Notes under the pieces: model-generated
What the model was told of the DNA's origin: nothing
The model's database searches: none
What the model saw: the letters and a program-made list of their open reading frames with translations, nothing else
Shown: piece after piece, positions 1-19,379 of the stretch
Layout of the letters: every line of letters starts with the position of its first letter
Position numbering within the stretch: position 1 is the stretch's first letter
Assembly (NCBI GenBank): GCA_963836075.1
Contig: CAWIIB010000001.1
Location: 1 to 64,000 of the forward strand
DNA from: an uncultured Acidobacteriota bacterium
GTDB taxonomy: Bacteria > Acidobacteriota > JAQAZP01
Direction: 5' to 3'
DNA: 64,000 nt
Position numbers and translations under genes: made by a program

Positions 1-2
1 GG

Positions 3-2901
<2,899 letters not shown>

Positions 2902-3098
2902 TAACTGAGTCTCCGGAATAACCGGGGCGGTTCATACAGGGGGGGCTCGCGCGTTGGGATACTGCTCCACAGGCTGGGTGATCCATCCCGACCCGGTAAG
3001 CGCGCGATTTTATGGCTGGCCTGTTTCCCGCGAGGGGGAGGAGGATCAGCACCTTATCATTGGTGTTTCACTGTGGGCTGGAGATACTCTGGGCTCTC

Positions 3099-3600
3099 TC
3101 ATGTTCTCATGTGCGACTGGGCTTCGAAGTCTTCGCGTGTGATGTCGAAGTAGATACGATCGACCTGATCGCGTGTCTCGTTTTGTCGCCGATCTGAACC
3201 GGCCCAACTCTGTAAACCCGTTCTTTTCCAGGACTCGGCGAGATGGCTGATTGCCATCGATGATCCAGGCGTAGACATTGCTGAGGCCGTATTCGGTGAA
3301 GGCAATCCGCAGCGCCGCCGAAACGGCCTCGGTGATGATGCCCTTGCTGCCGCGGGACCGTAGTCCGAGAAGATACCAGATCATTGCGAGGCCGTCGACC
3401 TGATCAAGATCGGAAAATCCCACCAGCCCGCAGGCTTCCTCTTCGTCGCGCACCAGCAGCAAGCGGTTGCGCTTGTTGCGGAGCATGACGCTGATCATTC
3501 GGCCGCTCACCGTCTGCCCACGCCATTCGCTGGTCAACCAGCGGTTGATCTCCCCATCGGAGAGCCATTCAGCGGCCAGATCGAAATGCTCCGGTGTCAA
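3099..3600 (-). CDS. RimJ/RimL-type GNAT N-acetyltransferase (frameshift near 3' end)
   Basis: RGSKGIITEAV, and NQPSRRVLEKNGF..G (GNAT motif B). The probable true C-terminus RDQVDRIYFDITREDF lies in another frame. Confidence 0.8.
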
Positions 3601-4814
3601 CAGGTTCGACGGAAATCAACGGTCGGCCTCCCTGTGATCGCTTTGTACGCGCAGAATTCCTCACGGAGTCCAGCCGGCCAACCGGCGGTGTCAAATCCAA
3701 ACTGTGAGAAAATGGCGTAGACGATCCGCTCCAGCCCCCAGCCCACGCATGCACTTGCCGCAGGCCTGCCTCCGACCGTGATATCAAAGGCTTTGCCGAA
3801 GGTGGCGGCATGGAAATTCGAGGAAATCACGGAGATCATCTTCTCTTCCTGCGGGATCAACGCCCGCAGTTCTTTCTTGGCTTCCTGCTGGCGCTGAAAG
3901 GAGGCCTTCACCGCGTAGTCGTCGGTAAAGAACATATCGTTGGCTACCTCGAGGCGACAGTGCAGACCCCAGCGCCTGGCCTGTTCGATGACGAGTTCTT
4001 CAGCCTTTGCCCGGGATTCCAGAACATACTTGGGATGCCCGACCCAGACGACCTCACGCATGGTGAATGCTCGCAAGCGGCTGAGGGTCATCTGGTTGGT
4101 GCCTTCGAAACGGTGGCAGCCGAGGACGGCGGTGATGCAGCGTCCGGGCCGTTCAAGCTCCCAGCCCTCCATGCCCTCGTAGCAATGGTAGCAGCAGGAG
4201 GGACTGATCGCGTAGTCGTGACTCGCCATCCGGCCATCGTGGAGATCTGCCGACCAACGGCCCTCCTCGCAGCCCTTGGAAAACTGCTGCAAGTTGTCGA
4301 CATCCGGTCTGAGGTGAGACACGAAATCGATATGCTCTGGAAATGAAGTGAAATGATTGCACCGGTCCAGGGTTCGACAGAGTATGGTTGCGGATAGAAT
4401 TCCATTTCCGCCTTGAAAGGCCGAGCGAAGTCCCGGATGACCGACTGGTCGATCATGTCCATCAATGCGGCTGCGTCACCACGCAGGATCACATGACCGT
4501 CACCAACCGATGTGGCCCATTTGCGTTCGAGCAGTTCACCCCATGCGTCGTTTCGGGTGATATCGGCGGACTGTTCGAAATAGGTCATGTCCTTGTGGCC
4601 GAACTCACTCTTCTGGTAACGATCAACCAGACGTTGAAGCTTCTGCCGTACGATGTCGGGATCGGCGTCCTTCGGCAAGATCCGCATGCAGCGTTTCGTC
4701 TCCTTATCGATTCGGCACTGCGAGAACATCCTCGGTGAGAAAGGCAAGTGCATACTCGAGCTGGCTCAAATACTGCTCCTCGATGTTCGTCAGCTGCAGG
4801 CTCAGGGTGACCAT
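3597..4814 (-). CDS. Atypical seryl-tRNA-synthetase-like amino acid:[carrier protein] ligase (class II aaRS fold; at least 2 frameshifts)
   Basis: HFISFPEH, SPSCCYHCY (Zn-ligand PxxCY), CHRFE (motif 2), FTMREVV, SSNFH, SACVGWGLER (motif 3). ATG at 4814 directly follows the carrier-protein stop. Confidence 0.82.
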
Positions 4815-4815
4815 C

Positions 4816-5079
4816 TCAGATCTCTCCTCCCCGTCGTTTACAGACGAATTCCGCGATCTCGTGGATTGTGTTGAGAGGGTGGATCACCAGGTCGGAGTTG
4901 GAGACCTTGATACTGAACTTGTCCTCAACAAAAGAGGTCAATTCGACGGCGCCGAATGAATCGATGTAGCCGTAGTCGAAGAGGTGGACGTCCATATCGA
5001 AATCCGGATCGTCGTCTCCGATATTGTAGTTGGTCCGAACAAAAGAGTTGATTTCCTCGGCGATAGATGCCTGGTCCAT
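4816..5079 (-). CDS. Acyl/aminoacyl carrier protein (DltC-like)
   Basis: 87-aa acidic protein with the LFDYGYIDSFGAVEL phosphopantetheine site. Confidence 0.9.
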   Translation of the reverse strand: MDQASIAEEINSFVRTNYNIGDDDPDFDMDVHLFDYGYIDSFGAVELTSFVEDKFSIKVSNSDLVIHPLNTIHEIAEFVCKRRGGEI

Positions 5080-5149
5080 GTGGCGTATCTCCTTGTGGCA
5101 TTGACCTAGCCGTTCGAGGTTGCTCCCAGCGAATTCCAGATCAATCGGG

Positions 5150-6187
5150 CGCAAGCCAAGCTGGTGTCCTTGTTGTAGTGCGGGTCCCCCCGGCAGGAGA
5201 GCGGCTTACCAGCCGCGTGAATGTCTGAAAGAACCGGCCTCAGGTCGAGCAACGGCAGACCCGAGTTCTTCGGTAGACGTCGCGGGTCTGTTGATACGGC
5301 ACATCTGCGTCGAGGCTCAGATTATTTTGGCTCGCCAGTGCCGCGACACCATCGAAATCCAATTCCACAGCCAGTGGCACATAGACGATTTTGAGCGATG
5401 CGCCGATGGATCAGTCCAATGTCTGGATCTCGCTTAAGCGCCTGGAGCAAAGGGTCGCTGCGCGTTTTTGATAGCTCCCCGGTATCGAAAAAACCGAGCA
5501 GCATGCTGTTGTCCGGCTCTACTCCCATGACGTTTCCCACCATGTTCCGCACCCGATGGTAGATTACCATATGAGTTCTGATCCATTCCTTCGTCACGTG
5601 CTTCCGGGTCGGCTCCTGCCGATACAGTTTTCCGTTCGAACTCACCTTGACACGGTTATAGCCGCCGGATGTTGTGATGAGATAAGGCGAGAGCAGAATG
5701 ACGACAGTTTTGATCTCGATGTTTTTTTCTTCATGCAACCAGCGCGCGATTTCAAGCTGGTTGCGAAGATAGTGCCCGCCCACGCTGCAATTGGCCACGT
5801 GCTGGCCATGCTCCGCGGCCAGGGCGGCGAATCTTCCCGACAGGCTGGCCTCGTAGTCGAGACATTGCCCGTACCCCTGCGAATCTCCGAGGACGAGGTA
5901 GTCCACGGTGGAACCCGGTCGCAGTCCTGGTCTCCGGTGAGGATCCGCATCGCAATCCGAGGTCATCGGTGATGACCGTGAATGGTCCGGAGATCCATTC
6001 TTCCGAGGTCACGACGTTCTCCTGGTGCCGATAACCACTATCTCCAAAACTGGTATACAGGCCCGCCAGACTGTCCGGGGCTCGGGCACCCGCCAGGCGA
6101 TACGCGGTTTCGGCCACCGGAAAGGAGAGCACCGCCACCGCGATGGGAATCAAGAACGGTGATCAGGTGACGGCTAGAAATTGACAT
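5150..6187 (-). CDS. Membrane-anchored SGNH-hydrolase-like protein (AlgJ/DltD-like; frameshifted, 3' end approximate)
   Basis: N-terminal hydrophobic segment, DDLGLR, LVLGDSQGYG (GDS block I), NCSVGG. Confidence 0.7.
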
Positions 6188-6199
6188 AGATGAACTCCG

Positions 6200-7538
6200 G
6201 CAGGGATTGAATATCTTCGCCCAGCTGGAAGATCAGCGTCCAGATGATGGCACAGACCATCATGGACCATTTGAACAAAGTCCAGTGTTCAGCGAGAGAT
6301 CCCGAACGGCGGCATCTTTGGATCCGGGTTTCATGGCAGCAACCCCCGAAGAACGAACATCATGTTTTCAGTGTCCGGCAGGAACAGAATCGCTCCGAGT
6401 GCTACGCGAAGGTTGGTCCATCCCACCTTGAGCCAGTACGGTTGGGCCGCCGCGTCTGGAGAGCGGGGTGGGCTTGATGCCCAGTTGGGCCTCGATCAGG
6501 AGATGAAGCCCGTGCCAGAATCCCCAGATGAGAAAGTATATTGTCAATCCGTGCCAAAGACCACAGAGCACCATGACCAGCAGGGCCAGGAGGGATGTGC
6601 GGGTGCGTCCGGACCGCATTCCGCCCAGTGGAATAAAGACATGGTCACGCAACCAGTCCACCAGGGTTATGTGCCAGTTCCGCCAGAATTCCGTCAGAGT
6701 GGAGGCGAGCAGGGGCTGCTTGAAGTTTTCCGGCACCCGAACGCCCATCATGCGTCCGAAGCCGATGGCGATGTCTGAATACCCGGCGAAATCAAAATAA
6801 AAATAGAGGTAGAGGCAGACGAATGATGCCCACACTGCGCAACAGGTTCGGTTCCTCTGTGCCCAACAGTTTCAGGATGGCCTGGTTCAACAGGTAGGCC
6901 AGGCAGAGTTTCCGGAAGAAGCCGCGGCTGATACGGTAGATTCCATCAAGATAGTCACGGCCCTGCGGCATCTTAGGGCTGGCGATTTGCTGCTGAAAGT
7001 CGAGAAACTTGTGGATCGGACCACTCGTCAGGGTCGGGGGAAAGAGGGTGTAGAAGAGGAGTGATGCGGGAGAGGAGAGCCGAACCTCAACCACGTACTG
7101 CATATACAGGAAATTTATGGCACGAAAGAGAAAGTAGGAGAATCCGATCAACTGCTGTAGTTGCTCGTCGAGGATGCTGTTTCCGAGAAATGGAATCGTG
7201 AACTGCTGGTAGCACTTGAATCCCAGCATGAAGCCGACCAGCCCCACCGTTCCCGCGGAAAAAACTGCTCTTGCGCAGCCACTGTCGCTTGGGCTGGTTT
7301 CGCAGCCGATTCATCCAGAGATGGAGGGGATACAGATACAGCAGCGTAACGCCACCGATGACGATGAGTGATTGCGGCGAAGCCAGGCCGATGAGCAGGA
7401 CGCTGCAGGAGGCGCCAAAGAGCGCGAAGCGGCCTGGGAGGAATCAGCCGTCGGACCAGGATAAGCAGTACCAGTAGAGCGAGAAATCGGTAGTCGAGCA
7501 GGCTGGGGCTGATATCTGGCAAGGCATCCTCGCGTCAT
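6200..7538 (-). CDS. MBOAT family O-acyltransferase (AlgI/DltB-like; frameshifted)
   Basis: GFSYFLFRAI, FPPTLTSGPI, YFDFAGYSDIAIG, ENFKQP, FWRNWHITL..WLRDHVF, GLWHG. Confidence 0.92.
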
Positions 7539-8464
7539 TGGTCTGTCCCTCGCCAGAAATCAATCTGACGAAATGACATGCATCACTTTCCTGGTTGCTC
7601 AACGAAAACAGACTGAACAATCTGATTGCGACGCCGCTTGTGTGGCCTGACAGCTGGTCACTTTGGTTCCCAAGCGCTTGTGCGAGTTGAACAGATTTCC
7701 AGCGTGGGTTGCCGACATCGATTAGGACTGCCTATCTTTTGGATACGCGCTGAAGTCCTGCAAACAAAACGATATTATCCAAACCCCACCACGCGAGGGA
7801 AGAGGACACTACCCGCAGTCCGGGCAGGCCCATGCGAACAGTTCTTCTGCTGGATGAATTCTGCCAGGCTCTTCGCGTGTTCAAGGGTCGATGCAATACG
7901 TTGAATATTCCAAGCATAAAATAATTTTATCATAGACCCGATGGCCGATGCCACTCGGATACGGAGTCTTAAGGTACTAGAAAGGGCCTGGTCCCTGCAA
8001 CTGTGGGGAGATGGGAGAAGCCCAGGGGAATACATCCAGACCTGCGACGAAGCATCGACCGAGCGCTCCGAGAACTACGTTAGACCTGGAGCGAACGGAT
8101 GATGCTCGCCCCATTACTGAGGAGTGACGGTGCGGACGCTGTGCAACTGGATCAGGGCATCACAGGAGAAACCGAATCGGAGATTTCTGTCCTCGATCCT
8201 CTTTTTACAACGGTTCGGGACTGATCCGGCAGGTTTGTGGCATGGCGCTTTGAGTAAAAGCTGTATTAAAACCCTCTAAGTGCTAAGGGTACAAGCAAAG
8301 TGGATAAAGTCCATAAACATGATGGGCAAGCGTTCATATCGTATGGCAAGTCTCGGCTTGCTCCCCTAAAACTTTGCAAAAAATTGGGGGGCAGCACCGG
8401 GTTTCAACTTGCCAGCTTTTTAACTTCCAGCTTAGTATAATAAGGATTTGGGGCTGGCCAAGGC

Positions 8465-8820
8465 CAAAAGACGTCCCTAGGCGAATGGAGGCCTGGCACA
8501 GTAGCGGGCGAGCCTTTCGAGGGCCATGCGGTCCCAGGCCTCGACGCACACCGCGGCATCGAGGGAGAAGCCGCCATGGTGATCCCACTCGGCCATGTCG
8601 AGGGCCACGTGGTCGTCGATGAGGTCCCGGCGGACCATGTAGCGCAGGATGCGGTGGCGGAGCGTGTCGGTGAGACGGTCGAGCCGTGCCTCATCGATGC
8701 CGGCGGCTTGGTGGAACTCGGCCCCGCCGTTCTCGGCGGGGGCAAAGAGGCCGTCGGTGACGAGGCAGTGAAAGTGGAGATGCTCGTTAAAGGTTGAGCC
8801 GGCGCGGTGGATGAAGTAAC
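8465..8820 (-). mobile_element. IS91-like HUH transposase internal fragment
   Basis: HRAGSTFNEHLHFHCLVTDG...HGGFSLDA...LERLARYCARPPFA. Confidence 0.8.
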
Positions 8821-9247
8821 ACTGCACCATCCCCTTACGCCGCATCGGCTATCGGGATCCGGAAACGAAAAGCACTATGTCTACATCACCAACGCGATCC
8901 ACCTGGCAGCCAAAACCATCGCTGACATCTACAGGGAACGCTGGCAGATCGAGCTGTTCTTCAAGTGGATCAAACAGAACCTGAAGATCAAGAGCTTCCT
9001 GGGCACCTCGATAAACGCCGTGCTCACCCAGATCTGGGTGGCCATGTGCATCTATCTCATGCTGGCCTATCTTAAATACTCCAGCAAAATCAGAGGAAGC
9101 ATGATCCGCTTGCTACGACTGCTCCAGCTCAACCTGTTTGAAAAACGAAACCTGATCGCGCTCTTGCGCGGAGGGCCACCGGGAAGCCAAAGATCAACCG
9201 CCCAGAGGGAGCTCTGCTTCGCATGAAAAGTTTATGGGACAGCAGTG
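8820..9247 (+). mobile_element. IS4-family transposase 3' fragment with right end
   Basis: IADIYRERWQIELFFKWIKQNLKIKSFLGTS, followed by the terminal-repeat-like TTATGGGACAGCAGTG. Confidence 0.85.
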
Positions 9248-9599
9248 GGCACCTCAGCTGAAAGTGCGAAACCTACTTTACGTTATCCAGCAACTGGACG
9301 CCAACGGTGTAATGTGCTAAGGATGCTGATTGATTAGAGTCGTCCGCAATCCGCCAAAACAGTCGAAGAAAGTGATTGCTTGTACGGAGGCGAATGAACT
9401 ACGCTGATCCAATGACGATATCAGACTGGCAAGGTTCCGTGTCAGCGGATATATTCAGCCAGACTGGGCGGGAGGCAGCACACGTTTGAGATTGGTTAAC
9501 GCCTGCAATTAGATGTTGATTCCAAAATCATCTCTCTTGAAAACTCAATAAAACCGATCACGATTGATCTCCTGATCCAATCAGGAAAATGCACACTCG

Positions 9600-10941
9600 A
9601 TGAACAATACGCTCGGAAAGCTAGTTTTTTCATTGGTCACCGGTTGGAAAAGTTTACCGATTCGTGCCTTGGAGGCAGAATACCCTGGTCCGAAAACAGC
9701 TCTCCAGAGTGGATCCATCGCCGGCAATGGGAGCGATTGAACCAACTGCTCTGCTCAGCCTACCAGCATAGCCCCTATTATAGGAATTTGTTCGAAGAGC
9801 AAGGGATTAATCCAACAGACGGGTTCGATGAACAGTCTTTCCGCAAGATTCCCCTTCTGACCAAGCCCCTCATCCAGCAGCACCACAAGGAGATTTTGGC
9901 CCGCAATGGCAAGACTAGGTTGTTCTTAGCCAAGACTTCCGGTTCCACCGGCAGTCCCCTGCTTATCTACAAGGACAGTTCCTATCTAGCCAGCACGTAC
10001 GCTGCCATGTACCGCGGCCACAGTTGGCATGGTGTAAAAACCGGGAAGGCGTGAAGGCCGCCTATGGGGCATTCCCGTATCTAGCTTATGGAAGAATCAA
10101 AGTCATGTTCCATGACCTGCTACTCAATCGCATTCGTCAGTCGAACATGCACATACAGGAGGATATGTTCACCCGATATTACCGCCGCCTTAGGAAATTC
10201 AAACCGGCTTATTTGATGGGCTACCCCTCATTCGTATATTTCTTTGCCGATTTTCTCTTGAGGACTGGCCTCGACGGTAAAGCACTGCGACTGAAGTTCG
10301 TTAAAACAACAGCCGAAGTGCTACACGATTTTCAGCAGGAGACGATCGAGGCTCGTTTCGGTTGTAGGTGCATCAGCGAGTATGGCGCCGCGGAGACGGG
10401 CGTGATTTCATTCGAGTGCCCGACTGGTGGACAGCACATTATGTCACCTACGGTTTACGTTGAATTCATCGATTCGCCGTATGAACAGCCAGCACCCTAC
10501 AAGCAGATTGTCATCACTGGCCTTCACAGCCACGCCTTTCCGATCATCCGCTATTCCATCGGCGACCTTGGTTATCCACTAGCTGAACCGTGCACGTGTG
10601 GTAACAGTCTGCCTCTGATGTCTAAAGTCTTGGGCCGGGCTTCCGAAATTGTTGTAGGATTCGACCGTAGATACCACAGTTCCGTTTTTTCCTACCTGAT
10701 GAAGCAATTCATCAGTGAGGGGATCAGTTCGAGTCAGTTTCGTTTCTTACAGAATAAGCCGGGAGTAATCAGCGTGGAGATGGTAACGCAACACCAGACC
10801 CAGGTTGCTCACGACGAGGTAAAGGCTCTCAAAGTGTTGCAGAACTACTTCGGGGATGATATGCAATTTCACCTGAAAACCGTTTCGAAAATTCAGAGGA
10901 CAAAAGGCGGAAAACTACGCTACTTCATTTCACATCTCTGA
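9600..10941 (+). CDS. Phenylacetate-CoA-ligase-family (PaaK/CapK-like) adenylate-forming enzyme (frameshifted)
   Basis: SPYYR, IPLLTK, KTSGSTGSP, EYGAAETG, PIIRYSIGD, GKLRYFIS. Confidence 0.85.
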
Positions 10942-11159
10942 ACTTGCAGTATGGAACAAGCCTTTCCCACCATCTCGGCCGATGCTATTTCGTTGACGCC
11001 GCACCAGTTCGGTTATTCCATCGGCAAGAGGCAACTTTGTCGGTGATCACCAACAACACCAGATCATCTGGGCGGGATATGTCGGTAGGGGTGCGGTTGC
11101 TCGGACCTTAACGAAAAACATGTACGGATCGTATGTTTCGGTGTTGTCGTCATCTTGGT

Positions 11160-12300
11160 TCACTCCCTTACGACCTTCGCATAGAGTTCCCGGTAGCGCC
11201 TTGCCATGGCCGTCACGGTGAACCGATTCAGGAACCGTTGCCGGGCCTGCTCGGCCAAACGTCGCCTCATATTTGGATCCCCCAGCAGTCTTCGCATCTC
11301 CCGGAGCAGGGAGGCTTCATCCCTGGGATCCACGAGGAGTGCTTCCTGCTCGTGACGAACCATCTCCGGGACCGAACCCACCGAGGAAACCACGATGGGT
11401 ACGGCGCAGGACATGGCCTCCAGCAGTGCAATGGGCATTCCCTCGGTCTGCGAAGGAAGCACAAAGCAGTCACAACGGCTCAAGAGACCACACACATCTT
11501 CCACATATCCCTTGAACTCCACATGGGCGGACATCCCGAGGCGTTGGACAAGGGCTTCCAAGGTGTTACGGAACGGCCCCTCACCGGCAATCCAGAGCCG
11601 GATCTCCGGAAATGTCTCCCGGAGGTTCGAGACTGCCCGTATGAGGAGGTGGACGTTCTTTTTCTCGATCAAACGTCCCATAAAGAGAATCCTGGGAACC
11701 CCGGACCCGGAAGCGGATTCATCCATTCGCTTGCCTTCCCCTTGGACACAACCGGCAATCCCGTTCGGGATGACATCAATCTTTTCTTCCGGAACCTTCC
11801 GCTCCAGCAATTCCTTACGAATCGGGCCGGAGACGGCCGCCACACGGGCGACATTTTTCAGGAGCAGGGTCTCCAGAAAGATGTATTTCGCAAGGTTCGG
11901 CGTGAACCTTGACTCCGCATGGTAGGTCGCAACAAAAGGAATCCGAACCGCATACGACATCATTCCGGTGAGGATGGTGGCCTTGTACCCGTGGCAGTGA
12001 AGGATGGAGGGCTTCTGACGCCGGCACAGCTTGAAGAGGAAGGAGAGAAGGCCCGGAGCAGATTGTTCCAGGGCACCTTGGGGCCAGAACAGTTCCACCC
12101 CGGATCCCGCGACACACGACTGCATCCCCTCACGAACCTCGGGCCGGCCGTTGAGCAACACCAGGTCCGCAGGGCACCCGCTCGCCCTGAGCTCCGGCAG
12201 GAGAGCCATGAGCATCCGTTCAATGCCATAGAGCCCTCCACTGTCGATGAGGTGGAGGACGCGAACGTCTCAGGGCGCAAAGCCTTCGTCTCCATCCGCA
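11160..12300 (-). CDS. GT4 glycosyltransferase
   Basis: VIPNGI, FMGRLIEKKN, PSQTEGMPIALLEAM. The start probably lies near 12295 with a frameshift. Confidence 0.9.
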
Positions 12301-13385
12301 TGAGTCAGGTGCCAGTTGTCCGCTTCGAAAACCAGAGCCCCCAACTCCGCACTCTCTTTGTTGTAGAGGAGGGCCGGCAGTTCCCACCGCCGGGCCCGCA
12401 AATAGAGATATTTCTTCACAATCCTCCGGATTCCCGGATGGAGGCCCAGGCAGGAAATCACGCCGACCTGCTCCTTGGCGGCTACCTCGAGAGCCCTTCC
12501 TAGAAGGGAGGTGATGACATCTGTTGCTGAGGGCGCGCAGAACAGGTCCATGATTCGAGCGGGTTCCATCCCCCGCAACTCGGATACCCGGACGTCCAAG
12601 TATCCTTGGAGCCTTCCGTCAACATCCCTTGCAGCCAGCAGATGATGCTGGAAGACAGGGTCATGGAAACACCGCCAATCCACGAACCGCCTGTCTCGAA
12701 CGACGACAACGCAAAACTCTCCCCGGACGCGTTGCCAAAGATCGTCGAATTCCTCTCCCGCCTCTGTAACCCTCTCGATTCGCAAGGCAGGGGACACGTG
12801 TGGACGCAGAAACACGTCCTGGAGGCGAAGTCCCTGGGTGGTCAAGCCTCCCAGCAGCTTCATGAACGGCCACATGACCTTATTCCCGAAGAACGAGGGG
12901 ACCTGTCCTGCATCTTCCAGAAAGCCCATCATCTGTTTGATATCCATCGGCCTGATGTGAATCGGTTCGCAGAACACCGGCTTGTAGCCCAATCGTCGGT
13001 AAATCCTCCCTGTGCCTGGAGCATACCCGAATCCCGTGGCAAGCGTCTGGGTACTCTCCAGATAGGCCCGGCTCAACTTCTCGCCGAGCCCCATCCGCCT
13101 TGCTTCCTGGAGGACCATCAGATCTCCGGAGGACGAGGATACGATCTGACGGTCGCCCACCTGCAAGCGAATGGGAAAGGACCCGATAAATCCGAGAATC
13201 TTGCCTTCTTCCGTTTCTGCTACCCACATACTTGACGGCGTCTCGGACGCGGCGGGATTGCTTTGAAACTGCCAGCGCCACCTCATTTTCCAACGCTCCA
13301 GGCGGTCTTCCCCGAAAACGTTCCCGTAGATTCGAAAAATGACATCCATATCTTCGAGCGAAAATTCCCGGACCTGAATACTCAA
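12270..13385 (-). CDS. Tandem-GNAT-fold acyltransferase associated with polysaccharide locus
   Basis: WRWQFQSNP, GDLMVLQEARRMGLG (motif A), RDRRFVDWR. Paralog at 17091-18205. Confidence 0.75.
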   Translation of the reverse strand: MSIQVREFSLEDMDVIFRIYGNVFGEDRLERWKMRWRWQFQSNPAASETPSSMWVAETEEGKILGFIGSFPIRLQVGDRQIVSSSSGDLMVLQEARRMGLGEKLSRAYLESTQTLATGFGYAPGTGRIYRRLGYKPVFCEPIHIRPMDIKQMMGFLEDAGQVPSFFGNKVMWPFMKLLGGLTTQGLRLQDVFLRPHVSPALRIERVTEAGEEFDDLWQRVRGEFCVVVVRDRRFVDWRCFHDPVFQHHLLAARDVDGRLQGYLDVRVSELRGMEPARIMDLFCAPSATDVITSLLGRALEVAAKEQVGVISCLGLHPGIRRIVKKYLYLRARRWELPALLYNKESAELGALVFEADNWHLTHADGDEGFAP

Positions 13386-13402
13386 AAATACCTCCTTGCC
13401 GG

Positions 13403-14239
13403 TTACCTACGGATATGCCCTTTTCGTAAGCAATGAGCTGCCTTCTCTTTGTAGAAGAGCCAGTCGTAACGGCCCTCCAGCTTGGCCGCGAATCGTTCCA
13501 GACTGTCGTCTCTCCAAACCACGATCCGATGCAGTTCATACCGGTCCCTCTCCTCATTCCGCCTGCCGAATCCCGTGCTGAGCCCGGCCATATACCCGAA
13601 GCGTCTTGTGAGACGCACGGCCCGATCATCATAGTCTGAGCGTCCACCAAAGGGATAGGCGATAGAACGGACCGGCATTCCGAAGAGGTCCTCTATGGCC
13701 TTTTTGGAAGCTTCGATTTCCTCCCGCAACGCCTCCTCGTCGAGATCCGAGAGCCGGCGATGTGTCATGGTGTGACTCCCGAACTGGATGTTTGGGGAGG
13801 ATTTCACGATCCCCTTCAAGGCTTCAATGGAGAGGATGGGAAGTGTGGGCTCCGGCCGGTCCCTGTCCCAGGCGTTTTCACCGCCAAGATGCCCAACCGG
13901 CAGATAAAGCGTTGCGTCAAGGTCCAGTTCATGAAGAACCGGCAATGCATGTTCCTGAAGGTTGCAATAGGCGTCGTCAAAGGTAATGGAGACACGGGGT
14001 TGTCCGTCCCGGACATGCAGATTCTGAAGGAGCTGTTCAAGAGGGACCACCCACCCGCGGGAATGGAGGTACATCATGTGGTCACGAAAGGACTGCGCGG
14101 AAATGCAACGCGGGTGAGGCGTATCCTTAACACCGTGATACGCCAGAATCGTATTCGACGGGAGACCGCTGAAGGACGCGCAAAGTGCGCCCACAGGCGA
14201 AAACGCCACACGGCTGAAAAAGGAGTGCGTGGTCATCAT
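13403..14239 (-). CDS. Polysaccharide deacetylase (CE4/NodB)
   Basis: ILAYHGV, ITFDDAY, GSHTMTH, AYPFG. Confidence 0.92.
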   Translation of the reverse strand: MMTTHSFFSRVAFSPVGALCASFSGLPSNTILAYHGVKDTPHPRCISAQSFRDHMMYLHSRGWVVPLEQLLQNLHVRDGQPRVSITFDDAYCNLQEHALPVLHELDLDATLYLPVGHLGGENAWDRDRPEPTLPILSIEALKGIVKSSPNIQFGSHTMTHRRLSDLDEEALREEIEASKKAIEDLFGMPVRSIAYPFGGRSDYDDRAVRLTRRFGYMAGLSTGFGRRNEERDRYELHRIVVWRDDSLERFAAKLEGRYDWLFYKEKAAHCLRKGHIRR

Positions 14240-14287
14240 CTCTTCTTGTTAGCATAAATCGAACATAGGAGACAACAAGATTGTATA

Positions 14288-14665
14288 TCAAGAATCAACA
14301 GAGGCAAGGTCTTGTGGTCCATATGGAAACACGGAGCGTGTCAACGGGATCAGCGCTCGATGCGATCTCTGCCTGGGGCGGTTTACCAACGGCCCCAGGC
14401 GAACCCGGTGACGGTAAAGTGTCGCCCGGGACACCGCCAGTGCATCGCGGGCCGGGGCCGTTCCCACGGTTTTGGACAGCTCTTCTGCGGCGGCCATCAG
14501 TCTTCGTCTTCGATGTCGGGGCTGTTCAGGGGGATCCCCAGCAGCTCCGAGGCTTTTTTTTGGATATCAAGGAGTAGATCCGTCCGCTTCAGACGTTTCC
14601 TCAGCCGGGCGATCTCCCCCTCCAGTTCTTTGATCCGTTTACGCGACGGATTGGCCTTACGACCA
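14288..14665 (-). mobile_element. IS3-family orfA/orfB junction fragment
   Basis: RGRKANP...LLDIQKKASELLGI overlapping MAAAEEL...ALAVSRATLYR. Same type as the remnant at 48850-49548. Confidence 0.7.
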
Positions 14666-14666
14666 C

Positions 14667-14830
14667 GGACGGTCAGCAAGGTCGATCTGGATATGGCCAA
14701 GGACCGCATCCACGTGTGGGTGGAAACCACCAAGGGCGGGACGTGGCGTTGCCCCGAATTCAACGCTATTGGTTCGACCTTGCTGACCGTCCATCCCGGC
14801 CCAAAACTCAAAGGTCTCGCATACAGCTAG
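14667..14830. mobile_element. ISL3-like transposase 5' fragments in inverted arrangement
   Basis: (W)TVSKVDLD...IHVWVE...WRCPE. A perfect 19-bp inverted repeat lies at 14667-14685 and 14774-14792. Confidence 0.5.
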
Positions 14831-14879
14831 GTGTCTTGCATCGCGAACCTCCTCGTCGACGCAAGATACCACAATCTGT

Positions 14880-15110
14880 GACCACAAGATGTAGGGGCTA
14901 CCCACACTTTACCCGGGAGGTTATCACGTTATCAGGACCTCTTTTGTTGGAAGGTCCATTAATAGAAGCTGGTCTCGTAAATCGTGGAGGGCTGAAGTCG
15001 TTGATCCGACGAGTGAAAACAGGTGAGGCCGGCTTCGACCATCTGATCCGGCTAGCCACTCTCGCGATGTGGTTTGAGTTATTTATCGTGAGACGAACGC
15101 CGAACAATGC
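14880..15110 (+). pseudogene. C-terminal remnant of an asparagine-synthetase-like gene
   Basis: LIEAGLVNRGGLKSLI...LATLAMWFELFI resembles AsnB C-termini. Confidence 0.45.
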
Positions 15111-15260
15111 GGGTTGGTTGGATTCTTTACAAGAACCAACGTCTGATAATTCGACGTTGATGTCGGTTTGGGAGGATAGGATTCGACCCCTTTCGAATTC
15201 CTTCTGTTCAGGCACTTGATCCGTTCTATTCCGCCACGGAAAAGAAACAGAGCAGATCCG

Positions 15261-16182
15261 CTACGTTACGGGCTCCGCTTGCACATTCTCAGGGGGGTCT
15301 GGAGGTGGATCACCACCTGACTCGGGCATTCCATCCCAAATCTCAAGATCATCAATCCCGTGATAAAATTGGCCTTCTGGTGTGCCGCCAGAAAAATTGC
15401 CTTGAATTGTGATGTTGACGGCTTCAGTGGCTGATCCTATAGCACCATCGCCCGCGATGTATTCCTGAGTCGCGTTTCCTGACGTTTCTTCATCTACGTC
15501 ATACCATCAACGGATTGTCCCGGTGTTCCAGTTGACATACATAGAATACTTGTGCCAAGTCCCGTCAAATGCGTCAGTGCAGACAACACGGGTTGTCCAG
15601 CCAGGTCGCGCTCTCCAGGGAACACATAATAGCCATTCGTGGGTCTATCGCCAGCGTCCGTGCTCCAGGTGCGTATACACGGCATGAGTTCCATCGTCAT
15701 GCCCCACTTTTATCCACTTGCACCAACCATCATTGGAGATGTCACTATTTTCCACCCTCGCCCAAAAACTAATGAATATTTCGCCGGTAGTGATATCCTG
15801 TCAATTCAAGGTCGCAGGTGCTACACGAAGAACCGTTGTAGACCGATGTTTGCAACGTCGTTGAACCGTGCCAGTGGTAATGCCGGACACGGCGGGGGTT
15901 AGTGCGTAATTCACGCTGTCGTCGCGGAGGAAGAAATATGACCCCGAATGTGGTGTCCACTCCGACTCTCCACTTGGGGTGTAGCCAGTCACCACCTCAG
16001 AACACGTATCATGGCTTGTGCAGTAAGCCGTGTAGCTGCTTGAGAATGGGGTAGTCAGGAGTGGTGTCTCTGTCTCCGGTCCAGTTCTCGAAGCCATAAG
16101 AGTAGATGAGTTCGGCTCCGTGAACCGCCGTCGAAGCAATCGAGCCGAGCAGAACTGCAGCGATGAATAGCGACCTCGTCAT
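15261..16182 (-). CDS. Secreted protein, possibly lectin/polysaccharide-lyase-like beta-sandwich (frameshifted)
   Basis: GGAGG RBS, signal peptide MTRSLFIAAVLLGSIASTAVHGA-ELIYSYGFE, C-terminus IDDLEIWDGMP...PPDPPENVQAEPVT. Confidence 0.55.
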
Positions 16183-17090
16183 TTACTTAATCCTCCATAT
16201 AGTTGACGAATACAGATTATGCAACATCCATGCCATGGATTGGATCAACTAGGTTCCTGTCCATCTCCTCTGATCAGCTTCTCTCATTCCTTTGAAAAAA
16301 TAGATCTTAGATGCCTTTTGGACCCGCGCACCACGACCTCCGGGAAGACCCTAATCGGATGCCGTACAGTCAATCCCTTGGCGCTTGCAACAGGAATGTA
16401 ACTCCAGAAGAACAATGTAATGAGTAAGATAAGTTCAGCATTACGATTCTGATCGACTCGAATTTACTTTCTTGTCCATAGGAGGCCAAGTAGGAGGTCA
16501 AGTGCCTCATGAGCCTGGGATCCTGCATGTGGAACTGCCGTCTGTCCGACGCCATCATCTCCGGGTGATAACGGCCCGTCAGGACCAAACGACGATGATC
16601 GCTCCCTCAATACTTTCGGTACCCCTGGGCGAGTCGACAATTCATTCTATCACGGGATTCCGGAGCATTGGAAACGATGCGCATCGTCTCGATTCTTGCT
16701 CGAAACCCACGCAGACTTCGGAGGACCCGAGCCATCTCCATTTGGACTGGCAGTCTAACTCTGGAGGTGTACAAAAACCGGGGGCAGGTCAATCCAAGCC
16801 CGGACTTCTCATAATTTCTACTGCGAGGCCCCGTCTCCGTGTATGCTGTGGACCGCCCACAAGGCTCCGGCTGCTGCGAGGTCAACCAATCAAAAGCGAT
16901 CTGATGCTGCCCCCGAAATATTGACCATGACAAGGGAAAACGCTATCCTCAGACTTAATAAAGGGGCTGAATTGGCCGAACTCTTATGGGAGCAAGCAAA
17001 GAAAACTACCGGCTTCGCTTGTTGATGAAGCGCTTTCTTGATAAATATGAAACCCCTTCGAGAAAGTAATCCCAGGGGAAAGGGGGATAT

Positions 17091-18205
17091 GTGAAAACGA
17101 AAATTCGTGAATTGCCAATTGATCAGATTGAAAGTATTTTCCCATTATACGAGGAGTCATTCAGTTATGACAGTATGATTTCATATAAAAAGCGATTTAA
17201 ATGGGAATATCTGGATAATCCCGCAACTCAATTTGGTCCATCAAAACTTTGGGTGGCCGTGAATGAGAATGAAGATGTGTTGGGGTGTATAGCTTCATTT
17301 CCCATGCGCCTTAAGATTGATGATACAGAAATTACCACCTCGGCTTCAGGGGATTTAGCCGTATTCAAGCAAGGTAGGCGCCAAGGTTTGGGCAAAAGAC
17401 TATGCCTAGCTTACCGTGACAGCGCTGATCCGCGGCTACCGATGGTTTCGGTTATGGGCCAATCACTGGAAAAATATACCGTAGCCTTGGTTATCAAGAG
17501 GTGTATTGCAAACCGATAAACTGCAGGCCGCTCAAAACATCCGACCTATACCAGTTTCTCGTTGATTCACGGAAGCTGCCCTCCTTCCTTGCGAAACAAC
17601 CTTTTCTTACCTTGAATCGGATGGCTTTTTTTTTATTAGGTCCAGTGGTTTTGATTTCTAATCGATTGCTATCACCGCGAATTTCTAAGGGAATTGAAGT
17701 CCAACAAGAAGAGTATGCTGATGAGCGATTTGACAATCTATGGGATGAGTTATCAAACCAGTTTCCCATTATTTTTCCCAGAACAAGTGGTTTTATTAAC
17801 TGGCGCTTTTTTGATGATCCGACAACTAGACACACTTTGTTCGCGGCATATTCAGAGGGTAAATTGCGAGGATATGCCGCTTGTTGTCAGACAAAACGCA
17901 AAAATATGCTTCTCGGCCGCATAATGGATATCTTCTGCCATCCTGATGATACATCTGTTATCACATCTCTTTTATCAAGGGTGTTCAGTCATCTCAAAGA
18001 AAATGGTGCGGCCATTATTTCATGCATGGGAACCCATCCCAAAATAAGGAAGATTGTTCGTAAGTACATGTATCTCCCCAGCAAGTCTCTGGAACAACCA
18101 GCCCTATTTTATTCTACCTGTCCTGAGGCACTTAAAAAGCGAATACTTGATGTGGATTCCTGGCACCTGACCCATGCCGATGGAGAAGAAGGCTTTGCTC
18201 CCTAA
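17091..18205 (+). CDS. Tandem-GNAT-fold acyltransferase, paralog of 12270-13385 (one frameshift near 17435)
   Basis: FKWEYLDNP, SGDLAV..GRRQGLG, and near-identical tail WHLTHADGEEGFAP. Confidence 0.8.
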
Positions 18206-18451
18206 AAGAAAAAATCTACATATCTTTGTTGGATAGTGGAGGGCTGGTTGTTGGATGAAAAATGGATTCCAGACGTGTCAGAGTGCGTCAGATCGGTTTT
18301 TACGTCCATTTTACTGGACCGAAGCATCGCTAACCCTGCGTAAGATTCAGGAACATCGGCGCTAACCAGGACATCTCACAGTCCATCTGCTGCGAAGGCG
18401 TTGATATTATAGGGACCATCCACTCAATCGAATCCTCTTGCACGTGCTCCT

Positions 18452-19379
18452 TCAGGAGGACGGAGAGGAACGAAAAAGATAAATCAGTGAAAGGCTTCTG
18501 CCCGCCAGATAGAACAGATAGATCGGTACCAGCGGGAAAAAACGGGAACTGTACCGCTCCGGAGGCACCGATGAAAGCTGACAGCTGCCAACAGCAATAG
18601 AAGACCACCTCCGAAAAGCAAAGAGGCCCTGCCATTCAACATCAGCAGGGACGCGACCAGGAACATCACCAAGGAAACGAACAGCACGCTGGACCAGAAA
18701 GGCAGGTAGGTGGGATTCCTTTTTAGAATCGTAAGCGTCTCCATTCCGTACCAAATCTCCTTTTTGAAACGCTGCCAAAGGGTTTTGGGGCCGCGGAGGT
18801 GGATCACGCGAATACGGTCGTCCGAGACAACCCTGAATCCCGCGGCTCGTACTCGACTACAGAATTCGTAGTCCTCTCCGGTCTGTATTTCTTCACAGAA
18901 CATGCCGAATCGATTGAACAGGTTATTACGGACAAACATATTTGCTGTGCCCAGAAAGTGAACGGAGGTGACACCTGAAGGTTTTTGTACCGGTACCAGG
19001 CTCTCTCTACCCAGGTCGTTTCCCTGGGAAGAGAACAATGGCAACCCGTCACCCCAATGTCTTCCTCCTCCAGCCGTTCCACCGCATACCGAATCCACCC
19101 CGGTTCAGGAAGACAGTCCGAGTCGAGAAAGGCCAGGATCTCCCCGGAGGCCACGCCGGCACCCAGGTTTCTCAATCCAGCGATGTTGACTTTGTCGTTC
19201 CGTAGGATTTTGGCCCCCAACTCGCTGGCGATCTGTACGGTCCTGTCCGTGGATCCATTGTCCACAAGGATCACTTCCAGGGGAATAAATTCCTGTTGTT
19301 TCAGGGCCTTGAGGCATCCCCCGATGTAGGCCCCCTCATTGTAAGCCGGAATGATGACCGACACGCGCGGGTGGATCAT
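18452..19379 (-). CDS. GT2 glycosyltransferase with C-terminal TM helices (frameshifted)
   Basis: VSVIIPAYNE, VDNGSTD, RNLGA, FLDSD, GEDYEF. Confidence 0.9.

Follow-up and report, generated by a model that had tools for sequence, protein, structure and literature searches.

What loads the carrier protein of a Dlt-like operon that holds no gene for the adenylation enzyme DltA, and what would such an operon be used for? The question is raised by a locus in the window analysed here, a stretch of 64,000 nucleotides from an uncultured Acidobacteriota bacterium. Six genes form a Dlt-like operon on the minus strand (positions 3099-7522), with a tRNA-synthetase-like ligase as the putative carrier-protein loader, in the order MBOAT, microprotein, SGNH-like protein, carrier protein, ligase and GNAT (Table 1). 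A preliminary description made from the sequence had listed five of these genes; their order, their common strand and the motifs quoted for the carrier protein (DYGYIDSFG) and the ligase (SPSCCYHCY, CHRFE, FTMRE and SACVGWGLER) all agree with the translations of the window, while the sixth gene, the microprotein at 6174-6334, had been overlooked. Its interpretation is borne out in part, namely in the likeness to Dlt and in the replacement of DltA. We found no prior description of such an aminoacyl-tRNA synthetase (aaRS)-ligase Dlt-like operon in the literature.

Table 1. Genes of the operon in the window, with their positions and main features
Feature	Position	Strand	Remarks
Short DltB-like MBOAT	6331..7522	-	~395 aa read through, 4 one-base frame breaks
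DltX-like microprotein	6174..6334	-	One hydrophobic helix, then C-terminal ...LPEFIYVNF and stop (motif scan)
Membrane-anchored SGNH-like protein	5106..6153	-	DltD position; at least 4 frame breaks
Carrier protein	4816..5082	-	~88 aa, frame intact, phosphopantetheine site DYGYIDSFG
Amino acid:carrier-protein ligase, methanogen-SerRS type	3597..4814	-	~398 aa read through, 2 frame breaks
GNAT, Acetyltransf_3 (RimJ/RimL/MccE-like)	3099..3600	-	One frame break near 3185

Does the window carry a working copy? The frameshifts suspected earlier are real and numerous, with at least 12 one-base frame breaks in about 4.4 kb, including probably one in the microprotein near 6290. As located by tblastn with intact homologues, the MBOAT is broken near 7433-7440, 7262-7303, 6795-6829 and 6438-6468, and its start is most likely the TTG at 7522 rather than 7538. 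The SGNH-like gene is broken near 5914-5954 and runs out of frame at about 5260-5440 (tblastn), the ligase is broken near 4668-4711 and 4391-4418, and the C-terminus of the GNAT (...VDRIYFDI) continues in the ORF 3099-3305. We regard errors of the long-read consensus, rather than decay, as a probable source of these breaks. All of them are shifts of plus or minus one, no stop occurs inside the correctly framed HSPs, and the framed segments are 72-85% identical to their nearest homologues and retain every catalytic motif, all of which speaks against decay. In independent short-read contigs from sediment (95-99% identity) one base is missing at each of 7439 and 7268, both of them MBOAT frame changes, and at each of 5259 and 5279, within the out-of-frame SGNH stretch, i.e. 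at 4/4 covered break sites; these contigs cover only 4 of the at least 12 breaks, are short, have a depth of 2-4 and stem from related strains, not from this very strain. A contig end is 3-7.5 kb away in an assembly of 10 contigs, a setting typical of long-read MAGs, and the same defect is seen in further loci from such MAGs (L007, L018, L023). It is rather unlikely in our view that the cassette is instead what remains, decaying and without function, of an island gained by horizontal transfer and the breaks are real mutations, although several observations are in line with it: the breaks are dense while serS elsewhere in the genome is intact, and the window copy sits on a low-GC, IS-rich island at the contig end, with a GC content of 0.42-0.60 in the first 20 kb versus 0.64 for the genome and with flanks that contain an IS3 copy harbouring a group II intron, as well as IS91-type and DDE fragments. 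Moreover, the cassette was not found in 2/2 same-genus genomes.

Taking the genes as encoding functional proteins, the operon differs from the Dlt pathway in its putative loader: an ANL enzyme there, a class II aaRS-type ligase here. The best PDB match of the ligase is an amino acid:carrier-protein ligase (aa:CP ligase), Bll0957 (3mey and others; E 7.5e-25, or 1.3e-40 with a profile), and methanogen-type SerRS (mSerRS) trails it (E 6.6e-14, or 7.6e-30 with a profile). A ligase fragment scores 118-119 bits on NF005479 (amino acid--[ACP] ligase), below the cut-off of 357. The ligase is distinct from the housekeeping SerRS, since an intact serS (527.8 bits) is present elsewhere in the genome. Its homologues are 396-398 aa long with identities up to 84-85%, and the Cys/Glu/Cys zinc triad and the arginines of class II motifs 2 and 3 are invariant in 21 sequences (alignment A5). 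With the Bll0957/NF005479 ligases it has in common a class II core homologous to methanogen-type SerRS, the zinc triad, a dedicated adjacent carrier-protein gene and, as far as the available part of the source describes it, the missing tRNA-binding arm of SerRS; it is about 50 aa longer than Bll0957, in which its N-terminal ~115 aa are unmatched. It makes up a large family of its own, for which 50%-identity clusters yield 715 representatives at E <=1e-30; a weak fusion of a PP-binding domain to the ligase (P0258) and one of a BtrH_N domain (P0133) also occur. Characterised relatives use Gly or Ala. The proposal that the aaRS paralogue replaces DltA is supported, in that the cassette contains no ANL gene and none genome-wide passes the dltA cut-off (best match 92.8 bits versus 559.85). 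The carrier protein passes PF00550 (31.6 bits, cut-off 20.8) and its D40 and S41 are invariant (alignment A4), which gives it the D-S phosphopantetheine site of the Dlt pathway; on the DltC models it scores 33.4 and 26.7 bits, under their cut-offs, the best DltC scores being 33-34 bits versus a cut-off of 68.

The membrane part of the operon resembles Dlt more closely than the preliminary description could tell. According to the accessible part of PMC12148441, DltB moves D-Ala from DltC to the tyrosine of the FXYXXF motif of DltX and from there to DltD, whereas other MBOATs have the motif fused to them on two additional helices and take acyl-CoA as donor. Following the motif definition given there, the FIYVNF end of the microprotein is an FxYxxF acyl-shuttle motif. 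The ATG of the microprotein and the stop of the MBOAT overlap (ATGA), and a small ORF ending in FxYxxF was found in 22/22 loci with short MBOAT and SGNH-like genes; the Pfam DltX model gave no match to this diderm-type microprotein. The MBOAT itself has no fused C-terminal FxYxxF, in contrast to the long MBOATs of loci L006, L009, L020 and L021, and its WHITL and LWHG histidines are conserved (alignment A6). Its fragments score 69.9 bits on PF03062 and 112.4 bits on TIGR04091; the best TIGR04091 score, 161 bits versus a cut-off of 375, is below equivalog level, and the model is not specific, since 177 and 165 bits are reached by two long AlgI/PatA-like MBOATs encoded elsewhere in the genome. 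For the protein in the DltD position the SGNH label is a putative one, drawn from weaker lines: conserved GDSQ, GGH and D-x-H-Y motifs behind an N-terminal hydrophobic anchor (alignments A1, A2), the resemblance of the homologue P0125 to SGNH/GDSL/AlgX clusters in the ESM Atlas (features 0.97, TM 0.70), a precomputed PF16822 match on one homologue and weak PDB profile matches (E 0.019 and 0.044). It matched no Pfam or NCBIfam model, Pfam DltD included.

Like the Dlt pathway (DltA, DltC, DltB, DltX, DltD), the operon thus combines in one unit a short MBOAT of this size with both conserved histidines and an N-terminally anchored Ser/Asp/His SGNH-like protein, together with a separate one-helix microprotein ending in FxYxxF (for Dlt, as stated in the available text of PMC12148441). 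It departs from Dlt in the loader, in an extra, translationally coupled GNAT, in its gene order (Table 1) and in its hosts, which are mostly diderms without teichoic acids, and it misses all Dlt equivalog and Pfam cut-offs. PatA/PatB and AlgI/AlgJ/AlgX likewise pair an MBOAT with an extracytoplasmic SGNH-like transferase in an FxYxxF acyl-tyrosine relay, and the SGNH-like protein here looks closer to the AlgX/AlgJ/GDSL families than to Pfam DltD; the MBOATs of those pairs, in contrast, are longer, bear the motif as a fusion on two additional helices, and work with acyl-CoA and without carrier protein or microprotein, as far as the portion of PMC12148441 at hand describes them.

Based on these likenesses, we lean towards a Dlt-type system that acylates an envelope polymer and has a class II aaRS-derived aa:CP ligase in the place of the ANL enzyme DltA. 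The ligase would activate an amino acid with ATP, holding its amino group at the Cys/Glu/Cys zinc site, and, judging from homology and gene linkage, would attach it as a thioester to the phosphopantetheine arm of the carrier protein encoded next to it. The coupled GNAT may then acetylate the tethered residue at its free alpha-amino group, which is the weakest step. By analogy with DltB/DltX/DltD, the MBOAT would pass the acyl group through the membrane to the tyrosine of FIYVNF, and the microprotein would hand it to the serine of the anchored SGNH-like protein, which in turn could esterify a polymer outside the cytoplasm, a Wzx/Wzy-type exopolysaccharide or an O-antigen-like glycan being the most likely one. 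In this scheme the identity of the loaded amino acid, the action of the GNAT and the receiving polymer are inferred.

The role of the GNAT is accordingly the most tentative. It passes PF13302 Acetyltransf_3 (71.8 bits, cut-off 25.4), as RimJ/RimL/MccE-type enzymes do, and its PDB profile matches are YdaF (1nsl), MccE (3r95), SpeG, RimL (1s7k) and PseH (4xpk), while its equivalog scores stay under the cut-offs for RimL (20.7 bits versus 184) and PseH (24.6 versus 93.1). MccE and RimL carry out N-alpha-acetylation on aminoacyl-adenylate analogues or on the N-termini of proteins; the family is not known to act on a carrier-protein-bound aminoacyl thioester, the substrate proposed here. N-acylation of the tethered amino acid, as first suggested in the preliminary description, is possible but slightly doubtful, being proposed from the adjacency, the family resemblance to RimL/MccE and the overlap of the GNAT start with the ligase stop (TTGA in the window; in 9/12 loci the GNAT begins at -3 relative to the ligase stop). 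N-acetylation would also cancel the positive charge behind the known benefit of D-alanylation, which counts against our preferred explanation.

Is this arrangement a common one? In a survey of 103 related loci the gene just upstream of the ligase codes for a carrier protein in 86 of the 88 testable ones, and the gene just downstream for the GNAT in 65 of 85; the GNAT is absent from the other 20, with a hexapeptide (LbH) enzyme in its place in several. Where the flanks reach >=3 kb upstream and >=0.9 kb downstream (50 loci), the short MBOAT and SGNH-like set is present in 22, a long MBOAT with fused motif in 5, an MBOAT with a ...FIYEGF microprotein in 3 (Paenibacillaceae), and an LbH acyltransferase with no MBOAT match in 18; in all, 18-20 gave no MBOAT match. 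No homology to the SGNH-like protein was detectable for the 299-aa Paenibacillaceae counterpart. The hosts belong mostly to Gemmatimonadota, Verrucomicrobiota, Acidobacteriota and Planctomycetota, and since the arrangement recurs in many phyla, it is far beyond chance. The neighbourhood survey called for earlier therefore upholds a conserved association, yet the conserved core is the carrier protein-ligase-GNAT trio and not the whole five-gene set, which had not been foreseen. The trio is best read as a portable aminoacyl-donor module that is plugged here into a Dlt-type export and transfer machine and that, in other bacteria, would be coupled to a cytoplasmic hexapeptide acyltransferase instead.

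Because the trio occurs without an MBOAT match in these 18-20 loci (18 LbH-type and 2 others), the GNAT might itself be the transferase. The trio could N-aminoacylate a cytoplasmic amine, for instance an amino-sugar nucleotide, the GNAT taking its acyl group from the aminoacyl-carrier protein, while the MBOAT set would serve a separate acetyl-CoA-dependent O-acetylation of the same glycan. Such a division into two functions finds some backing in the weak GNAT match to PseH, a sugar-nucleotide N-acetyltransferase, in the BtrH_N-ligase fusion, which points to carrier-protein-to-amine transfer in some relatives, in the failure of TIGR04091 to separate the short MBOAT from AlgI/PatA-like ones, and in the long MBOATs of 5/50 loci with a fused motif typical of acetyl-CoA users (PMC12148441, in the part available). 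We nevertheless consider it improbable: a short MBOAT with a separate FxYxxF microprotein is the published hallmark of the carrier-protein Dlt route, and the other pathways are described without a microprotein in that same part of PMC12148441. Moreover, the MBOAT/microprotein/SGNH architecture is tied to carrier protein and ligase in 22/22 loci, in one packed operon, and the cassette holds no other consumer of the carrier protein.

What would the acceptor be? The nearby polysaccharide locus of the preliminary description is indeed there, with GT4, polysaccharide deacetylase, GT2 and UDP-GlcNAc 2-epimerase genes close to the cassette. Intact cassettes elsewhere are accompanied by GT2, Wzx, Wzy_C, sulfotransferase and PEP-CTERM genes, and polysaccharide-lyase-like and beta-helix proteins are also encoded in the flanks examined; in L001 (alpha/beta hydrolases) and L014 (M14 peptidase) the flanking genes are non-glycan. 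Since glycan genes make up most of the flanks examined and genes for lipid A or phospholipids were not encountered there, we hold it improbable that the same machinery acylates a lipid or glycolipid (lipid A, LPS core, phospholipid, LTA-like), peptidoglycan or a protein, even though two flanks lack glycan genes and the carrier protein weakly matches an ornithine-lipid ACP model (33.8 bits versus a cut-off of 130). AlmEFG, which adds glycine to Vibrio lipid A in a carrier-protein-dependent manner, is a precedent for such an acceptor; like BtrI/BtrH of butirosin it places an aminoacyl group on a small carrier protein and then on a sugar or lipid, and both systems load by ATP-grasp or ANL enzymes, transfer in the cytoplasm and have no MBOAT/microprotein/SGNH relay. 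DltD's own acceptor, too, is a lipid-anchored polymer (PMC12148441, available part). Supply of a small-molecule, nonribosomal-peptide-like natural product by carrier protein and ligase is very improbable: the title of the founding aa:CP ligase paper (a reference entry in the accessible part of PMC9437257) ties these ligases to nonribosomal peptide synthesis and the P0133 fusion recalls aminoglycoside tailoring, but no condensation, thioesterase, PKS or NRPS domain was found in the ~60 flanking proteins scanned, and carrier protein and ligase have membrane acyltransferases and glycan genes for partners.

The biological role of the characterised aa:CP ligases was given as unknown in the available part of a 2022 review (PMC9437257), and the partners found in this operon suggest one. 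A Dlt-like operon with an aaRS-type loader would be the first likely job for this orphan ligase family. If the preferred reading is true, the likely job of the aaRS-like ligases is to decorate surface polysaccharides with amino acids.

Six tightly packed, co-oriented genes on the minus strand make up the cassette (window 3099-7522), and together they resemble a Dlt-type acylation system in which a synthetase-derived ligase would take the loading step. The preliminary description had proposed a five-gene Dlt-like operon from the sequence alone. All five genes were recovered in the translations and family searches, every motif quoted for them was located in the window translations, and we add a sixth gene, which encodes a microprotein. 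The MBOAT stop and the microprotein start overlap (ATGA), the ligase ATG lies two bases past the carrier-protein stop, and the ligase stop overlaps the GNAT start (TTGA); the latter overlap amounts to 4 nt in 9 of the 12 loci examined.

Features of the cassette and its surroundings in the window, and comparison genes elsewhere in the same genome (C1 coordinates)
Feature	Position	Strand	Match or remark
Upstream piece of IS3-family transposase (57 aa)	3-176	+	no Pfam match; link to downstream piece read from translation
Group II intron reverse transcriptase/maturase	800-2347	+	RVT_1 126.8 bits; GIIM 32 bits
Downstream piece of IS3-family transposase	2461-2904	+	rve domains
GNAT	3099-3600	-	PF13302 (Acetyltransf_3) 71.8 bits, cut-off 25.4
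Class II aaRS-like ligase	3597-4814	-	NF005479 'amino acid--[ACP] ligase' 118.9 bits; TIGR00415 66.4 bits
Carrier protein	4816-5082	-	PF00550 31.6 bits, cut-off 20.8; DYGYIDSFG
SGNH-like protein	5106-6153	-	no Pfam or NCBIfam match
Microprotein (small ORF)	6174-6334	-	terminal LPEFIYVNF
MBOAT	6331-7522	-	PF03062 69.9 bits
Transposase piece or copy	8477-8845	-	
Transposase piece or copy	8807-9226	+	
ORF	9644-10054	+	no Pfam match at E <=0.1
ORF	10024-10941	+	no Pfam match at E <=0.1
GT4	11160-12215		past the IS patch beside the cassette
371-aa protein with N-terminal GNAT domain	12270-13385	-	intact; Acetyltransf_9 39.1 bits; between GT4 and polysaccharide deacetylase
Polysaccharide deacetylase	13403-14239		past the IS patch
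GT2 fragment			past the IS patch
Beta-helix protein			past the IS patch
UDP-GlcNAc 2-epimerase			past the IS patch
Transposase piece or copy	20579-21181	-	
Transposase piece or copy	34222-35106	+	
serS	C1:1163279-1164535		intact, bacterial; 527.8 bits
Long MBOAT	C1:1954579-1955613		open frame 539 aa
Long MBOAT	C1:791686-792432		open frame 512 aa

Ligases that attach amino acids to carrier proteins (aa:CP ligases) have been structurally solved and their activity has been shown in vitro. The characterised enzymes use Gly or Ala, as stated in excerpts of PMC5370406, and their biological role was given as unknown in the excerpted text of a 2022 review (PMC9437257). Our comparison places the cassette ligase with these enzymes, as the preliminary description had anticipated: its best match among solved structures is the aa:CP ligase Bll0957 (E 7.5e-25 with the single sequence, 1.3e-40 with the profile), ahead of the methanogen-type SerRS (mSerRS; 3w3s, E 6.6e-14 / 7.6e-30; 2cim, E 2.5e-17 with the profile). 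The homologues are 396-398 aa long, the nearest (P0002) being 84-85% identical. In 21 ligase sequences we found invariant the Cys of PSCCYHCY (C208), the Glu of CHR(Y/F)E (E237) and the Cys of (S/G)C(V/L)GWG (C356), together with the arginines of motifs 2 and 3, R235 and R363; in Bll0957 these residues fall on the matching stretches, which we take to be those holding its zinc ligands. The ligase carries no tRNA-binding domain, the alignment to the 527-aa mSerRS 3w3s begins at residue 167-195 of the latter, and about 115 N-terminal ligase residues are without counterpart in Bll0957.

The ligase misses the cut-off of the equivalog model NF005479 (118.1-118.9 bits against 357) as well as those of the serS models TIGR00415 (66-74 against 489.55) and NF002120 (73-92 against 611). 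That it serves as the SerRS of the cell is ruled out by the intact serS elsewhere in the genome. Neither the translations nor the Pfam/NCBIfam searches revealed an ANL gene in the cassette, and the best dltA candidate in the whole genome reached 92.8 bits on TIGR01734 against a cut-off of 559.85, far from the window. Owing to the missed equivalog cut-offs, the separate intact serS and the lack of a dltA, we consider the ligase, judged by its sequence, a distinct subfamily of aa:CP ligases and not a SerRS. The earlier suggestion that an aaRS paralogue stands in for DltA agrees with a cassette devoid of ANL genes and a genome with no dltA above cut-off. Among representatives at 50% identity, the ligase family comprises 2190 matches at E <=0.001 and 715 at E <=1e-30; each of the 150 matches listed scores at least 217 bits, the majority near full profile length. 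Two fusions were found, one (P0133, 738 aa) with an N-terminal BtrH_N domain (43.8 bits) and one (P0258, 417 aa) in which an N-terminal PP-binding match (19.3 bits, under the 20.8 cut-off) replaces the usual N-terminal stretch.

How closely does the remainder of the cassette follow Dlt? According to the retrieved sections of PMC12148441, DltB takes D-Ala from DltC and hands it to the Tyr of the C-terminal FXYXXF of DltX and on to the Ser of DltD, while other bacterial MBOATs carry FXYXXF fused on two extra helices and use acyl-CoA. The cassette MBOAT resembles DltB in being short (387-402 aa in intact loci), in keeping both histidines and in having no terminal FxYxxF, but differs in its score on the DltB model TIGR04091 (161.2 bits against a cut-off of 375). 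We dropped this score as proof of DltB, since it is nonspecific: 177 and 165 bits are obtained for the two long MBOATs elsewhere in the genome, presumably parts of acetyl-type systems. The motif is found instead on the microprotein, which like DltX consists of one hydrophobic helix ending in FxYxxF and is encoded beside the MBOAT; this holds for the window and for all 22 related loci with a short MBOAT and an SGNH-like gene. No related short-MBOAT locus lacks this ORF, whose product terminates in [ED]F[VI]YVNF or something very similar, and we reject a chance ORF in view of its conservation across phyla. The Pfam DltX model (PF12459) gave no match for the diderm-type microprotein, and the copy of a Paenibacillaceae locus (L017) reached 16.2 bits against a cut-off of 25. 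Acetyl-CoA-type pairs such as PatAB and AlgIJ, in contrast, have the motif fused and no carrier protein, whereas the window type has a separate motif ORF and a carrier protein.

In the SGNH-like protein, an N-terminal anchor is combined with three motifs that are invariant in the alignment, GDSQ, GGH and D-x-H-Y, and these follow the order of the catalytic elements of SGNH enzymes. The ESM Atlas likens the homologue P0125 to SGNH/GDSL/AlgX clusters (features 0.97, TM 0.70), and PF16822 was found on one homologue. Neither Pfam DltD nor any other significant family match was obtained for the protein itself in Pfam and NCBIfam, and the family profile gave weak matches to PDB sequences (E 0.019-0.94, the best being 0.019 and 0.044). 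The carrier protein passes the PP-binding model and has an invariant D-S site; the DltC models NF003464 (33.4 bits against 68) and TIGR01688 (26.7 against 52.35) were both missed. Judged by its architecture, the system would work like Dlt, and it falls outside the Dlt equivalog families. The MBOAT/SGNH relay proposed in the preliminary description is thus upheld as far as the architecture is concerned, now including a microprotein, but not by the formal Dlt family tests, most of which were missed.

Is this arrangement common beyond the window? We scanned 23 loci from species-representative genomes and the best 80 of 236 confirmed metagenome loci with profiles built from our own alignments, window rows excluded; the sample is biased towards the ligase subfamily, since a match to the profiles is built into the 23, and the 80 were those nearest the query. 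Directly upstream of the ligase we found the carrier protein in 86 of the 88 loci that offer 300 bp or more on that side (misses: L048, L090); directly downstream, 65 of the 85 loci that offer 600 bp or more there have a GNAT of the same type. Several of the 20 misses have a hexapeptide acyltransferase (LbH) gene in that position, and L016 has a GNAT from another Pfam family. Contexts were tallied for the fifty loci whose flanks extend 3 kb or more upstream and 0.9 kb or more downstream. The pair of short MBOAT and SGNH-like protein, whose recurrence beside the ligase had been an expectation of the earlier five-gene proposal, was found in 22 of the 50, in all 22 with a small FxYxxF ORF. Three loci are of a Paenibacillaceae type, with an MBOAT, a microprotein ending in FIYEGF and a different, 299-aa protein with GNSS...DLGH; we do not claim homology of the latter with the SGNH-like family, because their hhalign probability is 1.2% and not significant. 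A long MBOAT with fused motif occurs in 5/50 (one also with LbH); 18/50 show an LbH gene adjoining that of the carrier protein or of the ligase and gave no MBOAT match, and 2/50 show neither an MBOAT nor an LbH context.

The LbH context is the second and an equally common one (L002, L004, L009, L018 and 14 metagenome loci, e.g. L055, L064 and L072). There, LbH adjoins the carrier protein-ligase(-GNAT) genes inside GT2/Wzx loci with no MBOAT match, L009 additionally having a long MBOAT, and the LbH gene replaces the GNAT in L002, L073, L090, L095 and L098. In a quick tree of 48 ligases, from which L018 and L023 were excluded as broken, MBOAT and LbH contexts are clustered yet interleaved, and well-supported branches force at least 3 and 2 changes. 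From this interleaving it follows that the donor module of carrier protein, ligase and GNAT appears to have swapped partners repeatedly.

Some loci deviate from the common layout, among them L058 (9566-13184) and L046 (7183-7371; 339-932). Downstream of the GNAT, some have SGNH-like protein, microprotein (ending EIPQFIYVNF) and MBOAT a second time, and in L046 the usual position of the GNAT, directly after the ligase, is taken by a microprotein ORF. In two Paenibacillaceae loci (L016 9880-12993, L022 9991-13086), the cassette is followed by an FG-GAP-repeat protein of about 1030 aa, which could be a candidate acceptor or partner. Hosts of the loci from species-representative genomes include Gemmatimonadota, Verrucomicrobiota, Acidobacteriota, Planctomycetota, a contig labelled 'delta proteobacterium', Paenibacillaceae and Ferrovibrio, and one host MAG is labelled Bifidobacteriaceae. 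The acceptor in Dlt is teichoic acid, whereas the majority of the named hosts come from diderm phyla, which to our knowledge are without teichoic acids. Experiments are feasible, since one carrier is in culture, Cohnella yongneupensis KACC 11768 (L016).

The neighbours of intact cassettes are GT2, Wzx-type flippases, Wzy_C, a sulfotransferase, a PEP-CTERM protein and GH9, and further a UbiA-HAD prenyltransferase and beta-helix/lyase-like secreted proteins. On this background, we propose that the ligase loads an amino acid onto the carrier protein, that the GNAT N-alpha-acetylates the tethered residue, and that the residue would then be relayed from the MBOAT via the Tyr of the microprotein and the Ser of the SGNH-like protein to an extracytoplasmic glycan, in analogy with Dlt. 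The acetylation, suggested by the coupling of the GNAT gene and by family resemblance, is the weakest step. A PDB profile search relates the GNAT to YdaF, MccE, RimL and PseH, the GNAT of L005 also passes Acetyltransf_3 (52.9 bits against 25.4), and none of the RimL, RimJ and PseH equivalog cut-offs is reached. The role of the GNAT, the loaded amino acid and the acceptor are the parts that we infer. The main rival holds that an amino sugar receives the group from the GNAT itself, or from LbH in other loci, as the true transferase, the MBOAT set performing ordinary O-acetylation. We judge this less likely, because the microprotein-type MBOAT is linked exclusively to this carrier protein and ligase. 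An NRPS-like pathway we reject, as no NRPS or PKS domains occur in the flanking proteins scanned around the window cassette and the intact ones.

Extending the proposed loading and relay to the whole family, we entertain a wider reading, to which we give slightly less than an even chance: a portable module of carrier protein, aaRS-derived ligase and GNAT makes an (N-acetyl)aminoacyl-carrier protein, interchangeable transferases deliver it to surface glycans, and the pathway is widespread across phyla. One such transferase would be the Dlt-like MBOAT/microprotein/SGNH relay, as in the window, leading to periplasmic O-esterification; the other would be LbH or a BtrH-like enzyme, leading to cytoplasmic N-acylation of amino sugars.

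The window copy itself is interrupted by frame breaks, which we mapped by tblastn of intact homologues against the unchanged window. The MBOAT gene has four frame changes (near 7433-7440, 7262-7303, 6795-6829 and 6438-6468), the ligase gene two (near 4668-4711 and 4391-4418), and the SGNH-like gene one near 5914-5954, with an out-of-frame stretch at about 5260-5440 that requires at least three further. The conserved C-terminus of the GNAT, VDRIYFDI, runs on in a different frame, and the N-terminus of the microprotein, as read from the sequence, also seems frame-shifted. Every break is of +/-1 base, and no stop codons occur inside the HSPs in the correct frame. In four public marine sediment or sediment metagenome runs, which share just 6-7% of sampled words with the region, short low-depth contigs are 95-99% identical to parts of it; they stem from related strains and cover 6-9 of 30 bins, the remaining breaks lying outside this coverage. 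These contigs have one base fewer at 7439 and 7268, the exact sites of two MBOAT frame changes, and at 5259 and 5279, within the out-of-frame SGNH stretch. No RNA run matching the cassette region was found among the public runs listed. The cassette lies 3-7.5 kb from a contig end of an assembly of 6.2 Mb in 10 contigs, which is sound elsewhere in the genome (serS is a 428-aa open frame), and similar frame damage is seen in loci of other long-read MAGs (L007, L018, L023).

On the strength of the +/-1 breaks without stops, the sediment contigs, the contig-end position and the damage in other long-read MAGs, we find it reasonably probable, at around two chances in three, that the breaks are consensus errors of the assembly and that the window copy is intact in reality. 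ORF-coverage statistics were left aside here because the lower GC of the island confounds them. The main alternative is real decay, for which speak the GC of the island (0.42-0.60, compared with 0.64 for the genome), an IS3 copy that contains a group II intron, together with IS91-type and DDE fragments, flanking the cassette, and the absence of the cassette from both of two same-genus genomes.

The GC of window 1-20000, set against 0.62-0.67 across all ten contigs, points to an island gained by horizontal transfer at the end of the contig. Mobile elements riddle this polysaccharide island: the intron splits an apparent single IS3-family transposase, and the four further transposase pieces or copies are three IS91-type Y2_Tnp and one C-terminal DDE_Tnp_1 fragment. 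The two overlapping ORFs at 9644-10941, in different frames, resemble one gene split by a frame break.

In summary, what is new here is a candidate Dlt-type MBOAT/microprotein/SGNH acylation system with an aaRS-derived loader and a GNAT; Dlt-type acylation itself is known. In the freely available full-text literature searched, we found no prior description joining an aaRS-type carrier-protein ligase with an MBOAT/DltB-type system. N-acetyl-aminoacyl decorations occur in bacterial polysaccharides, and the proposed pathway, if true, could explain their genetic origin. The retrieved sections of PMC12148441 (2025) state that MBOAT/SGNH pathways besides Dlt have no comparable carrier protein and no microprotein of the DltX kind, which would leave both to Dlt only, whereas the cassette family has both; the Dlt mechanism, with the acyl-tyrosine shuttle of DltX, would then extend past teichoic acids and Gram-positive bacteria. 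The cassette would likewise provide the first physiological role for aa:CP ligases, the operon naming concrete partners and a testable product. Since the ligase family is large (715 representatives) and common in metagenome contigs (236 confirmed loci), amino-acid decoration of exopolysaccharides could affect surface charge, recognition by phages and predators, and matrix properties in abundant, little-cultured phyla.
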